Source: a virus. From it: 49,301 bases of DNA. A program made the position numbers and the translations under genes. The stretch's first letter is position 1; each line of letters starts with the position of its first letter. The stretch is taken from UHGV virus genome UHGV-0103780. The stretch is one strand, 5' to 3'. Under the pieces are notes generated by a model. It searched no databases. It had not been told where the DNA came from and saw only the letters and a program-made list of their open reading frames with translations. Below, in pieces: positions 11,319 through 47,307 of the stretch.

Positions 11319-11335
11319 AATGCTCTAATAAATTT
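11319..11335 (+). promoter_or_regulatory. C1-repressor operator-like site (AATGCTCTAATAAATTT)
   Basis: 16/17 match to the recalled P1 C1 operator consensus ATTGCTCTAATAAATTT; upstream of c4-icd-ant. Confidence 0.7.
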
Positions 11336-11520
11336 GTATTTTTAAGTCACGAATGCTATCTTTTCGCATCATATTGACCTTTTAATCGTTCAGGCTTATA
11401 GTTCCGCCGTCGTAGCAAATTCTGCGACCGGGTTTAGCAGCCTGAATGATTGTGCGGACAGCCGCAGATATCCGATATTGCGGTATTTTTGTGTCCGTAA
11501 AACCGCGTTACGCCCAAATT

Positions 11521-11600
11521 ATGGTGGGGCGTGATGGGGAGGCTTCGGCCTGCTGGTTTCACAATCGCCAGTCTGCTAACCCCGTCACGTCCTGCCACCT
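11521..11600 (+). ncRNA. c4: c4-like antisense immunity RNA (boundaries approximate)
   Basis: Contains CACAATC (11560-11566) and CTGCTAA (11573-11579), each complementary to paired sites TTAGCAG/GATTGTG upstream (11434-11454) and downstream (11603-11638, just 5' of icd). Confidence 0.5.
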
Positions 11601-11649
11601 GTTTAGCAGCGGGTAGCAGGTTGTTAAACCTGATTGTGAGGCCGTAACT

Positions 11650-11871
11650 ATGGTTAATGCCAATCCTTGCGCACGCCCAGAATTCATCTGGCGTTTCTAT
11701 TCCTGTAAAAAACACCACTATCACTTCGTTATCGCAGCAACTGAAGACGAAGCACGCTCTCAATTGCCTGATGGCCCCTGCATTTTTACTGCCCGTTTTT
11801 CAACTAACTCGCGCAATTCACTTAGTTACTGGAGCCTCCCCTTCTCTGCCGACGTTCAGGGGGGTTTATGA
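11650..11871 (+). CDS. icd: Icd-like small protein, 73 aa
   Basis: Small ORF whose stop overlaps the ant ATG (ATGA at 11868-11871), downstream of the c4 target sites; the P1 immI arrangement. Confidence 0.6.
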   Translation: MVNANPCARPEFIWRFYSCKKHHYHFVIAATEDEARSQLPDGPCIFTARFSTNSRNSLSYWSLPFSADVQGGL

Positions 11872-12911
11872 AAAAACCTCTCGTCACCCGTAATGACATA
11901 GCCGAAGCGATCGCCCTGCATACTGCCTGTATACCGACACGGGAGATCCCCGGCGCAATTGCCAACTATTTCATGATAACCAGGCGTTTTTATACCCGAA
12001 CAGATAAGGCTGTGATCAACAGGCTACTGATAGCCGAGATCAGGGATTATTTGATTGAACAAGGACGTCTACGTTACGCAACGGTGGCAGCAGAAATGAG
12101 AAAGGAGGCACATAGAATGACCAGTAATAATTTGAATGTTAAAAAACCAGCACCTGTTGCTTCAGCAACGCCAGCACCAGCCGTGAATGTCATCCCCACC
12201 ACCGGAGACACAATCGACAGCCTGACACTGTTAAAGATGGTCAATGAAGCGCGTAAGTTATGTGGGGAACCAGAGGTTCGGAACAACAAATTCATCGAAA
12301 AAATACTCGACGAATTAGAAGGTGAGGACGGTTACACAAAAAGTGCAACCGTGCCGCCAGGTGGCGGTACGCCTATGGTTGTCATAACCATGACCTACAA
12401 ACAAGCCCTGCGAGTCGCCGCGCGCGAATCGAAAGCGGTCCGCCGTTCGCTGATCGACAAACTGGAAGAATTGCAGCAGGCAAACTCCCCTACCCCATCG
12501 ATCCCCCAAACATTACCAGAAGCCCTACGCCTGGCTGCCGAGTTGGCAGAACAGAAATTGCAGCTGGAACAACAGCTGGTGGCCGCAGCCCCTAAAGTCG
12601 ATTTTGCCGACCGGGTATCAGTGGCTAATGGAATCCTGATCGGGAACTTTGCAAAGGTCGTTGGACTTAAGCAAAACGCCCTTTTCTCATGGTTGCGCCA
12701 GAACGGCATTCTCATGGCTTTTGGTGCGCGCAAAAACGTACCGCGCCAGCAGTACATTAACGCCGGGTATTTCACGGTGAAAGAAGTGGTGCTGGATGAT
12801 GAAAATGGCTACCAGATACGGCTGACGCCCCAATTAACGGGTAAAGGCCAGCAGTGGTTAACTCGCAAGCTACTTGATGCTGGTTTGTTAAAACCAGTAG
12901 CAATAGGTTAA
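11868..12911 (+). CDS. ant: antirepressor Ant1-like (in-frame Ant2 start likely), 347 aa
   Basis: Translationally coupled to icd; C-terminal ~130 aa (LPEALRLAAELAEQK...GKGQQWLTRKLLDAG) shared with the KilA-like protein downstream. Confidence 0.7.
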   Translation: MKKPLVTRNDIAEAIALHTACIPTREIPGAIANYFMITRRFYTRTDKAVINRLLIAEIRDYLIEQGRLRYATVAAEMRKEAHRMTSNNLNVKKPAPVASATPAPAVNVIPTTGDTIDSLTLLKMVNEARKLCGEPEVRNNKFIEKILDELEGEDGYTKSATVPPGGGTPMVVITMTYKQALRVAARESKAVRRSLIDKLEELQQANSPTPSIPQTLPEALRLAAELAEQKLQLEQQLVAAAPKVDFADRVSVANGILIGNFAKVVGLKQNALFSWLRQNGILMAFGARKNVPRQQYINAGYFTVKEVVLDDENGYQIRLTPQLTGKGQQWLTRKLLDAGLLKPVAIG

Positions 12912-12988
12912 CAAAAGAAAAAACCTGCCAGCAAACTGGCAGGTTTCTGAGCAGATCGACCAACCCGATCTGGATCGAGTCAGAAAAA

Positions 12989-13005
12989 TTTGCTCTAATA
13001 AATTT
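12989..13005 (+). promoter_or_regulatory. C1-repressor operator-like site (TTTGCTCTAATAAATTT)
   Basis: 16/17 to consensus; upstream of kilA-repL. Confidence 0.7.
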
Positions 13006-13074
13006 CGTTTTCTAAGTGCAAAGAATCACCATTTCGAGCTGGTGATTGAAGGTTGATGCAAATTTGGAGAAAAA

Positions 13075-45175: not shown

Positions 45176-45205
45176 AAACGTGATGTACACTCATCACGTT
45201 TTTTA
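45176..45205 (+). terminator. rho-independent terminator
   Basis: ACGTGATG-tacact-CATCACGT followed by TTTTTT. Confidence 0.65.
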
Positions 45206-45215
45206 TTAGAGCAAT
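45199..45215 (-). promoter_or_regulatory. C1-repressor operator-like site (inverted, 14/17)
   Basis: TTTTTTATTAGAGCAAT is the reverse complement of ATTGCTCTAATAAAAAA; forms an inverted pair with the site at 45150. Confidence 0.55.
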
Positions 45216-45229
45216 CTACAAGGTGCACT

Positions 45230-45448
45230 ATGTGGCCATTCCGACGGAAATATCACTACTGGCTGATCGCCTTTGTTACGCCGACCGGCGGTATCAGGCA
45301 TGTCATCACCAGGTATCGCAACAAGAGACTCACCTTAGCCAGAATTTTACAGGCTGCCATAGGTGAGGGACTGGATACAAATTGCGTAGTCCTTCCTCCT
45401 TCATACTTAGGAAAAATGACCGAAGCACAAGCTAATACGGAACTTTGA
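45230..45448 (+). CDS. hypothetical small protein, 72 aa
   Basis: ORF just downstream of the operator pair. Confidence 0.4.
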   Translation: MWPFRRKYHYWLIAFVTPTGGIRHVITRYRNKRLTLARILQAAIGEGLDTNCVVLPPSYLGKMTEAQANTEL

Positions 45449-45449
45449 A

Positions 45450-46712
45450 ATGAGCACTTCAGCACAAAACCAATCAATCGAAAATGTATCTATCCCTGAT
45501 GTCCTGAATGCCGGTATCCCGGCCATTATCCAGAACATCCGGGCCGCGCAACGCCGCGTTAGTTGTGATGACCTCACAGCACGTTTTTTTGATAATGCGG
45601 TTCAGTCAGCGGAGATGCTTCACGCACAGCTTATTGATGTTTATAACGCAGAAGCTGATAGCCATAACTCCCTGGTAGATGCAGCTGAAAATATGCAGTT
45701 GGATCTCGGTCTGAAGGGTAAAGAAATTGAAGAGCTTCAGCTGCAAATTGAACATTTGAAACGCCAGCAACAGGACGCGATCGACGATGCGACGCATGAC
45801 GCCAACCAGCGTGCTGATAATGCCGAACGTATAAGCATTGAGCTGGAAACAAAACTCAATGAAATGACCGCGATGGTTGAACTGCGGAACTCACAGATTT
45901 CAACGCTAAAATCTCAATATAAAGAGATCATGAAACTTGATCCTTTTAACCTTGAGAAACGCTATAACAAAGCTAAAAGCGAGCGACAGGAACTGCGTAA
46001 GCAGGTCGCCGACCTTAACCAACAGCTCAAAAAAACTATTAAAGATGCAAGCGAAGCGCGCGTGGCATTTGCTAATAAAAAAGCAGAGGTTACCGCGCTG
46101 GTTAATGAGAATGCCAAATTTGCGACGCTCAAGAAGGAAATGTATGGCATTACTGAGCGCCGTTTCCCTGCAAGCAAACTTCATCCGACGTTAGGGCAAA
46201 TCTCCTTCTTCCCGCGCCTCCTGGCTTATGGGATCTCATCGCCTAAAGAGTTCAATAACGAGCGTCCTTATATCGTTTCTAAGCTGGACTTTGCTTATCA
46301 GTTCTGCTGCGACATGGGCTATGCCATTGATATCCGGATCAACGAATGGTTGATGCCAAACTTCCAGCCGTTGGCCATTTTCCGCGAGTTCCAGCCGGAA
46401 GGTTGGGTAGAGTTCTTCCATGAATTGATCTGTAAAGAGATGGAAAGCCGCCGCCCGGAACTGGTCCGTCGAGTTGAGTGGGCGCAAGAGGTTATGTTGG
46501 CAGAGGTAGAGCTGCCGTTCGAACCGGAATTCATTGATGAACTGGCCAATAAAGGGCTGCATAGCCTATTTGATGTAGTTACCCGCCGTCATGAGCAGTT
46601 GGTTGTTGAATTGGGTTTAGAGGAAACTGCGGCAAGAAGACTTCTCGATGTTTGCTATGCACGTAGCGATGCATGGGAAAAAGAGAACGGCGGCACTATT
46701 TACGTTCGCTGA
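45450..46712 (+). CDS. hypothetical protein with long central coiled-coil, 420 aa
   Basis: Residues about 60-230 are heptad-like and charged; start overlaps the stop of the 72-aa ORF. Confidence 0.55.
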   Translation: MSTSAQNQSIENVSIPDVLNAGIPAIIQNIRAAQRRVSCDDLTARFFDNAVQSAEMLHAQLIDVYNAEADSHNSLVDAAENMQLDLGLKGKEIEELQLQIEHLKRQQQDAIDDATHDANQRADNAERISIELETKLNEMTAMVELRNSQISTLKSQYKEIMKLDPFNLEKRYNKAKSERQELRKQVADLNQQLKKTIKDASEARVAFANKKAEVTALVNENAKFATLKKEMYGITERRFPASKLHPTLGQISFFPRLLAYGISSPKEFNNERPYIVSKLDFAYQFCCDMGYAIDIRINEWLMPNFQPLAIFREFQPEGWVEFFHELICKEMESRRPELVRRVEWAQEVMLAEVELPFEPEFIDELANKGLHSLFDVVTRRHEQLVVELGLEETAARRLLDVCYARSDAWEKENGGTIYVR

Positions 46713-46784
46713 TAGTTACAGTGTCACATTTAATGCTGGTGGAGTGCGCCCACCAGCATTTTTTTCGTCCAATGAGGAGGGCAT

Positions 46785-47291
46785 TTGAGTATTTTCAATA
46801 AACACGCACACCAGGAACGTCCGTACATCGTCATAGTAGATATTGATGGGACGATATCAGAGGCAACGGAAGACAGGCTGCATTTACTTCCACCACCTGG
46901 CAAAGGTGCATTAACAGAGCACTGGAACGAGTTTAACCTTGCCTGTGACACTGATGCTCCCATCACTCCAGTTATTGATATGGTGCGCCAGTTGTCCGGC
47001 ATTTACACCCTCTGGTTTGTAACCGGGCGCTGTGAGATAGCCAGGGATAAAACACGAGCCTGGTTGCGTAAGCACGTAACAAATGGGGCTGAGCCTTTGC
47101 TATCTATGCGTCCTGCCACCGATGACAGAAATGACGGTCCAGCAAAGATTGATCTCCTGAAGAAAATTGGTCTAAGTAAAATTGCGTTCGCGCTGGAAGA
47201 TAAGATTGAAGTGGCGCGTGTTTTCAGGAGTCACGGCGTACTTACGTTAATGGTCAGGGAGTATGAAAACGCGCTTCTCCACCAACAATAG
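46785..47291 (+). CDS. HAD-superfamily phosphatase-like protein, 168 aa
   Basis: Motif I VIVDIDGTIS (DxDGT). Confidence 0.55.
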   Translation: MSIFNKHAHQERPYIVIVDIDGTISEATEDRLHLLPPPGKGALTEHWNEFNLACDTDAPITPVIDMVRQLSGIYTLWFVTGRCEIARDKTRAWLRKHVTNGAEPLLSMRPATDDRNDGPAKIDLLKKIGLSKIAFALEDKIEVARVFRSHGVLTLMVREYENALLHQQ

Positions 47292-47307
47292 TTGCTCTAA
47301 TAAATCT
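47291..47307 (+). promoter_or_regulatory. C1-repressor operator-like site (GTTGCTCTAATAAATCT)
   Basis: 15/17 to consensus; directly after the HAD gene stop and upstream of the cargo genes. Confidence 0.6.

Follow-up and report, generated by a model that had tools for sequence, protein, structure and literature searches.

Seventeen-base sites resembling the operators of the phage P1 repressor C1 recur along UHGV virus genome UHGV-0103780, a stretch of 49,301 nucleotides that we refer to as the window, and they raise the question of whether one repressor regulon is laid out here and whether it reaches the PGA_cap and L-asparaginase genes at the far end of the DNA. Our analyses indicate that the sites are the C1-repressor operators of a P1-like phage-plasmid and that the PGA_cap/asparaginase tail is most likely an assembly chimera and not cargo, a reading to which we assign a probability of about 0.93. 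The C1 operator consensus, ATTGCTCTAATAAATTT, has been published; P1 carries 22 such operators, C1 binds them as asymmetric 17-mers, and the roles of Lxc, Coi, and Ant have been described (PMC8546580).

Megablast comparison of the window with P1 and its relatives RCS47, JL22, SJ46, and P7 gave 97 to 99% identity over essentially the full length. The matched P1 coordinates run from ∼36.8 kb to ∼84.5 kb, about half of the phage genome, and the window is one entire metagenome contig (ENA ERZ824500, NODE_607_length_49301_cov_9.79) with a name in SPAdes format. Judged by these alignments, the window is a P1-like temperate phage-plasmid of the genus Punavirus. For operator and promoter annotation we used the P1 record GenBank AF234172, specifically its "protein_bind, phage repressor C1" features; the open reading frames (ORFs) of the window that lie 3′ of each operator correspond to P1 genes. 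Searches of the contig by tblastn with P1 C1 and Coi as queries revealed no homologs, and the lack of c1 is expected because P1 c1 maps at 93.2 to 94.1 kb, past the P1-equivalent span of the contig.

A scan of both strands for ATTGCTCTAATAAATTT at up to three mismatches returned nine matches in the window, compared to a chance expectation of 0.18 and a maximum of two in 100 dinucleotide-preserving shuffles. The sole perfect match is at 31467. The sites at 11319, 12989, and 27945 each match at 16 of 17 positions, those at 47291 and at 41526 to 41542 (reverse) at 15, and those at 45150 and 45199 (reverse) at 14. The ninth site, at 31478 to 31494 on the minus strand (15/17), overlaps the 31467 site and forms an inverted pair with it. 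Because the consensus might be tuned to the window's own sites, we also scored the window with a weight matrix derived from five operators beyond the window-homologous part of P1 (Olpa, Oc1a, Oc1c, Oc1d, and Oc1e). With this matrix the nine sites scored 16.7 to 26.5 bits, compared to a top score of 15.8 bits in 30 first-order Markov random windows. The next-best scores in the window, ∼12.9 bits, are at noise level, and nothing else in the window exceeds noise. The first-pass annotation had used the consensus as it is published and had listed eight sites at 14 to 17 of 17 positions, proposing a weight-matrix scan of both strands as a check. All eight are present and the range is right, although the reverse site that it placed at 41525 starts at 41526, and the scan lifts these eight and the ninth above the random maximum. 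Its statement that the eight sites define the regulon was too strong, since it missed one operator of an overlapping pair (Op72b), a weak one (Op83), and a truncated one (Op55), and since the contig holds about half of the phage, with 11 more operators outside it.

Each of the nine sites falls exactly on a C1 protein_bind feature of AF234172, which bears out their first-pass assignment as C1 operators. The likeness to the P1/P7 operator set is close: eight of the nine strong 17-mers are base-identical to P1, and the positions, orientations, flanks, downstream operons, Op72ab pair, and consensus are alike. Over 97 positions of context, the nine strong sites share 92 to 97 with P1. Oc4 (former Op51; 11319 to 11335, plus strand; AATGCTCTAATAAATTT) corresponds to P1 48140 to 48156, scores 24.7 bits, and lies 5′ of the c4 RNA, icd, and ant1/ant2. 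OrepL (former Op53; 12989 to 13005, plus; TTTGCTCTAATAAATTT; P1 49810 to 49826) overlaps the −10 element of PkilA (P53), the promoter of kilA-repL of the lytic replicon. Odmt (former Op68; 27945 to 27961, plus; ATTGCTCTAATAAATAT; P1 65145 to 65161; 21.9 bits) abuts the Pdmt −35 element 5′ of uhr-hrdC-dmt (28033 to 31476). The perfect site is Obana (former Op72a; 31467 to 31483, plus), in which TTGCTC is the −35 element of P1ban, with TAATAT at a spacing of 17 nt (N17), and which overlaps the dmt stop codon; Obanb (former Op72b; 31478 to 31494, minus; ATTACACTAATAAATTT) is the second half of the bivalent Op72ab, the two forming an inverted repeat at 31465 to 31496. O26 (former Op82; 41526 to 41542, minus; ATTGCACTAATAATTTT; P1 78528 to 78544; 24.1 bits) lies between gene 26 on the minus strand and pmgL on the plus strand and overlaps the predicted σ70 promoters P1pmgL and P2pmgL. 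OpmgRa (former Op86a; 45150 to 45166, plus; ATTGCTCTAATAATTCC) starts 2 nt past the pmgQ stop, with TTGCTC as the predicted PpmgR −35 and TAAAAC at N17, and OpmgRb (former Op86b; 45199 to 45215, minus; ATTGCTCTAATAAAAAA) is inverted relative to it. Finally, OpmgT (former Op88; 47291 to 47307, plus; GTTGCTCTAATAAATCT) provides TTGCTC as the predicted −35 of P2pmgT. Op88 has G at position 1 where P1 has A, and since the same base ends the pap stop codon, TAA becomes TAG.

The P1 span matched by the window contains 11 annotated operators. One of the remaining two, Oppp (former Op83), has a weak homolog between pmgM and pmgN (42433 to 42449, minus; TATGCACTAATTAATTT) with four mismatches to the consensus and T instead of the C of P1 at position 1. 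Its score of 12.9 bits is in the random range and its context matches P1 at 81 of 97 positions; its identification thus depends on where it lies and not on its score. The other, Orlf (former Op55), is a remnant at 14754 to 14770 (plus), in a context aligned to P1 51575 to 51591, that retains only the left 11 nt, ATTGCTCTAAT. It is outside the 25 best matrix scores, which places it below ∼6.5 bits, and 58 of 97 context positions match. P1 homology breaks within Op55, after base 11, where a ∼700-nt segment of hok/sok toxin–antitoxin type (14765 to 15460) replaces P1 rlfA/rlfB/pmgF. This cassette contains a sok RNA at 15059 to 15233 (114.9 bits, Rfam) and a 68-aa hok/mok-like ORF at 15170 to 15376, and the same replacement is found in several other P1-like phages (phi456, Ro157c2YLVW, and MH422554).

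The first-pass annotation also held that the sites mostly overlap promoters of the form TTGCTC-N17. An exact TTGCTC is present in six of the nine strong sites. When a promoter was defined as a match of at least 4/6 to TATAAT located 16 to 18 nt past TTGCTC, the arrangement at N17 was found in three of the nine, Op72a (TAATAT), Op86a, and Op88 (both TAAAAC); the −10 matches of Op51, Op53, and Op68 are only 2 to 3 of 6, and the reverse sites fail. These are also precisely the three operators whose TTGCTC serves as a −35 in the P1 record (P1ban, PpmgR, and P2pmgT). Thus, the proposed form fits Op72a, Op86a, and Op88, and "mostly" overstates its reach. In a second arrangement, seen at Op51 and Op68, the 3′ operator end falls within an annotated −35 of the form TTGNNT (TTGTAT or TTGTTT); P1pmgT, the second predicted promoter at Op88, is placed likewise, as are the promoters at Op94 (Plpa) and Oc1e (P4cre), outside the window. 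At Op53, the operator contains the PkilA −10. Hence, a single fixed operator–promoter geometry is an oversimplification, with three placements in the window; a further one, in which the promoter spacer is occupied by the operator, is found outside it, at Oc1d. A T-run comes after each of the six gene-facing operators of the window, with "TA" following at a distance of exactly 17 nt from TTGCTC; T-rich flanks of a similar kind adjoin Oc1e and Olpa, which are independent P1 sites. This shared flank therefore suggests a recurring operator–promoter module that is compatible with both promoter positions. By homology to the P1 annotation, the promoters P2c4, PkilA, Pdmt, P1ban, P1pmgL and P2pmgL, PpmgR, and P1pmgT and P2pmgT overlap or adjoin operators.

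How such sites work is established for P1, and near-identity suggests that the same applies to the contig. C1, encoded elsewhere on the phage genome, would bind at each asymmetric 17-bp site, with stronger binding in a ternary complex that includes the corepressor Lxc/Bof. Each site would overlap or abut the −35, the −10, or the spacer of a σ70 promoter, so that bound C1 would block early and lytic transcription in the lysogen. The repressed set would comprise ant (antirepressor), kilA-repL (lytic replicon), uhr-hrdC-dmt (methyltransferase), ban (helicase), and the pmgL-Q, pmgR-S, and pmgT operons. Inactivation of C1 by Coi or by Ant1/Ant2 would lead to derepression, with C4 antisense RNA keeping ant in check. 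The lambda CI operators work likewise, the repressor occluding σ70 lytic promoters in the lysogen; the P1 operators are asymmetric 17-mers at more than 20 scattered places and not symmetric sites clustered at one immunity region.

The genes expected of this arrangement are in place. The operons c4-icd-ant, kilA-repL, uhr-hrdC-dmt, tRNA-ban, pmgL-pmgQ, and pmgR-pmgS, most of them named in the first pass, agree with the P1 annotation. Rfam models located the C4 RNA at 11517 to 11602 and its a1/b1 target element at 11396 to 11448, 3′ of Op51, and ARAGORN found the three tRNA genes of the ban operon. The pmgL-pmgQ genes are the "GSGPS operon" of the first pass, and VGSGPS is present in both PmgO and PmgP, which give weak, sub-threshold MptE-like Pfam matches. 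Op83 lies inside this operon, for which a late promoter, LPpmgL, is annotated in P1. Control of pmgL-pmgQ by C1 is plausible and has already been proposed, as far as we found on the basis of annotation. On the timing of expression, the P1vir transcriptome study (PMC8201110) offered no evidence, since dmt, hrdC, and the pmg genes go unmentioned in its main text.

The end of the contig is of a different origin. P1 homology ends at 47520, and the 1,801 nt from 47501 to 49301 align without gaps and at 98.4% identity to the chromosome of Sutterella wadsworthensis DSM 14016 (NZ_QNRV01000003), a betaproteobacterium of the gut. Three-way alignment and BLAST boundaries place the join at 47501 to 47520, a 20-mer, AAAGAGCGCGGCATGATTTT, that is common to P1 pmgT (codons 6 to 12) and the interior of the Sutterella PGA_cap gene. 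The Sutterella segment proper, at 47521 to 49301 on the plus strand, holds two genes: PGA_cap, truncated at its 5′ end, and behind it a gene for a type II L-asparaginase that is cut off by the end of the contig. The gene order is that of the Sutterella pair; the contig PGA_cap differs in lacking its 5′ part and in being fused to the first 12 codons of P1 pmgT. The resulting hybrid ORF (47486 to 48496) encodes 12 PmgT residues and a PGA_cap domain that covers only Pfam profile positions 103 to 254 of 255. Both genes at the join are thus incomplete, pmgT being cut after codon 12 and PGA_cap lacking ∼100 N-terminal profile positions. We also considered the PGA_cap ORF as a divergent allele of P1 PmgT and rejected this, because BLASTP identity is confined to the first 12 residues. 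The asparaginase ORF extends from 48506 to the contig end (Pfam Asparaginase PF00710, E-value 7e-61). GC content changes from ∼0.47 to 0.53 at the join, which is 1.8 kb from the contig end. Assemblers of the SPAdes family use 21 as their smallest k, and the 20-nt overlap equals k−1 for that value. We estimate roughly that a phage of 95 kb and a genome of 3 Mb have a 20-mer in common by chance ∼0.5 times; therefore, such graph joins are to be expected in a complex gut sample. These features make it very probable that the tail is a metagenome assembly chimera in which Sutterella DNA was joined to the phage.

The alternative that survives best is that the PGA_cap and asparaginase genes are genuine cargo, captured through the 20-nt microhomology in pmgT, transcribed from the Op88 promoter, and repressed in the lysogen. 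The reading frame is kept across the fusion, a gap of only 9 nt separates the PGA_cap ORF from the asparaginase ORF, which has the same orientation, and there is no strong plus-strand terminator between Op88 and 48506. Among P1-like elements, the gene name given at the locus after Op88 also varies from record to record (pmgT in P1 and upf86.8 in P7, for instance). Against this, the donor is a betaproteobacterium and not a known P1 host; the DNA is nearly identical to the donor chromosome; both genes at the join are truncated; and the join is exactly a 20-mer, in a contig of SPAdes style and close to its end. The contig stops inside the asparaginase gene and shows no second junction. Moreover, past 47521 no P1-like phage, none of 868 matching plasmids, and none of 885 matching E. 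coli genomes extends the alignment, and the junction 42-mer was not found in Joint Genome Institute (JGI) metagenome contigs or in IMG/VR. We therefore regard genuine cargo as improbable, and the first-pass proposal that the asparaginase region is under lysogenic repression as most likely wrong, the segment being Sutterella chromosome joined at the shared 20-mer.

A second alternative holds that the 17-mers are a dispersed module, a promoter or an AT-rich repeat, that takes no part in repression here, the phage having a heteroimmune repressor or having lost c1. The position of c1 off the contig and the promoter-like look of the extended T-run and "TA" flank would fit this idea. However, the sites are identical to P1 operators annotated as C1-bound, several of which were earlier deposited in GenBank as separate operator-fragment records; c1 lies beyond the contig end in P1, of which the contig is only about half; and the immI components that act through C1 (c4, icd, and ant) are intact. 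This alternative is thus very unlikely. That the 17-mers are chance AT-rich matches can be dismissed, as the region is only moderately AT-rich, none of the 100 shuffles reached nine matches, all nine sites score above the best of the 30 random windows, and all nine are intergenic or at gene ends at P1 operator positions.

Several points nevertheless weigh against the view that the contig carries functional C1 operators and a chimeric tail. We infer repression at these sites by carrying the function over from P1 on the strength of near-identity in sequence, and with c1, coi, and lxc off the contig, the presence of the cognate repressor is assumed. A strict σ70 consensus scan called no TTGCTC arrangement, although it recovered the constitutive P51b and antisense PaskilA promoters; it misses these arrangements because TTGCTC matches TTGACA at only three of six positions, and by consensus the operator-overlapping promoters are weak. 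Several promoters at Op82, Op86, and Op88 are listed as "predicted" in the P1 record. As for the tail, the absence of the segment and junction from other collections is negative evidence only, and an assembly chimera and a real microhomology recombination, here with an in-frame fusion, are not strictly separable by sequence.

Comparative data add little. P1-like phages in the collection all stand at the level of ∼98 to 99.7% identity, and the next relative in a distant search with 41300 to 47520, D6, has only ppp in common; a comparison of operator with flank conservation is therefore powerless. Similarly, a scan of viral contigs for the 14-mer core TTGCTCTAATAAAT was uninformative on divergent relatives: the matches listed are mostly single chance ones, and a few P1-like loci among them have two sites 3,522 nt apart, as do Op68 and Op72a. 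Within the window, the top matrix score among non-annotated sites belongs to 35647 to 35663 (minus; ATTGCATTAATAATCCT) at the ban/dbn boundary. We rejected it as a candidate operator, since its 12.95 bits are in the random range and it is unannotated in P1; it is probably a chance match.

Four operators, Op55, Op72a, Op86a, and Op88, begin 0 to 4 nt from, or overlap, the upstream stop codon, that of repL, dmt, pmgQ, and pap, respectively (stop/operator positions 14750/14754, 31476/31467, 45148/45150, and 47291/47291). These operators therefore mark tight operon boundaries. A weaker side reading, drawn from these four stops and from the Op55 half-site at the edge of the hok/sok cassette, is that C1 operators may be preferred boundaries for module exchange.

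The Op86 pair encloses a further element. Op86a and Op86b are inverted 13-nt arms (window 45150 to 45215) around a separate hairpin with a perfect 11-bp stem at 45175 to 45202 on the plus strand (free energy −13.4 kcal/mol, z-score −5.3). The −10 of PpmgR overlaps the left arm of this hairpin, and the T-run that follows it is the complement of the A-rich tail (AAAAAA) of Op86b. We infer that the hairpin is the terminator of the pmgL-pmgQ operon, nested between two operators. The departure of Op86b from the consensus at positions 15 to 17 would then be due to its tail complementing the T-run.

Other features were observed in the neighborhood of the operators. A strong terminator-like hairpin followed by eight T's lies at 31654 to 31684, ∼170 nt 3′ of Op72/Pban and inside the "dicF-like" region of P1, so that transcripts starting at Pban have to read through it to reach the tRNAs and ban; DicF was not called there at the Rfam gathering threshold. 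Also in the ban operon, the offset between window and P1 shifts by ∼196 to 198 nt between tRNA-Thr and tRNA-Ile (window 32300 to 33931), indicating an indel relative to P1 in the plp/upl/tciA region. A terminator-like hairpin at 46732 to 46768 (−18.1 kcal/mol, z-score −4.7) with a trailing T-run separates pmgS from pap; pap, which encodes a HAD/PNKP-type phosphatase domain, is thus left with no evident operator-controlled promoter of its own. Between Op88 and the pmgT start, a 28-codon ORF at 47390 to 47476 encodes the hydrophobic peptide MNTAFKIIMAAIYFWLFSITFGGIVAHG, with an AGGAG ribosome-binding site ∼8 nt upstream; the P1 record has no annotated gene there. This ORF is preceded by a strong hairpin at 47340 to 47362 (−16.3 kcal/mol) that has a T-run on the minus strand only.

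The C1 operator set is thus already known, and the contig is a rediscovery of the well-known P1 system: the P1 operators have been mapped and annotated for decades and are repeated here almost base for base, which leaves little discovery value. The seemingly new part, metabolic cargo under a repressor, depends on the final 1.8 kb, which is almost certainly misassembled, and the hybrid ORF and the partial asparaginase should not be catalogued as phage genes. The useful outcomes are a corrected generalization on promoter placement at C1 operators and a warning about the chimeric contig end. Were the join real, a periplasmic L-asparaginase would lie behind the C1-controlled Op88 promoter and would be on only at prophage induction, and the phage would have taken a metabolic enzyme from another bacterial class, that of the betaproteobacterial Sutterella.

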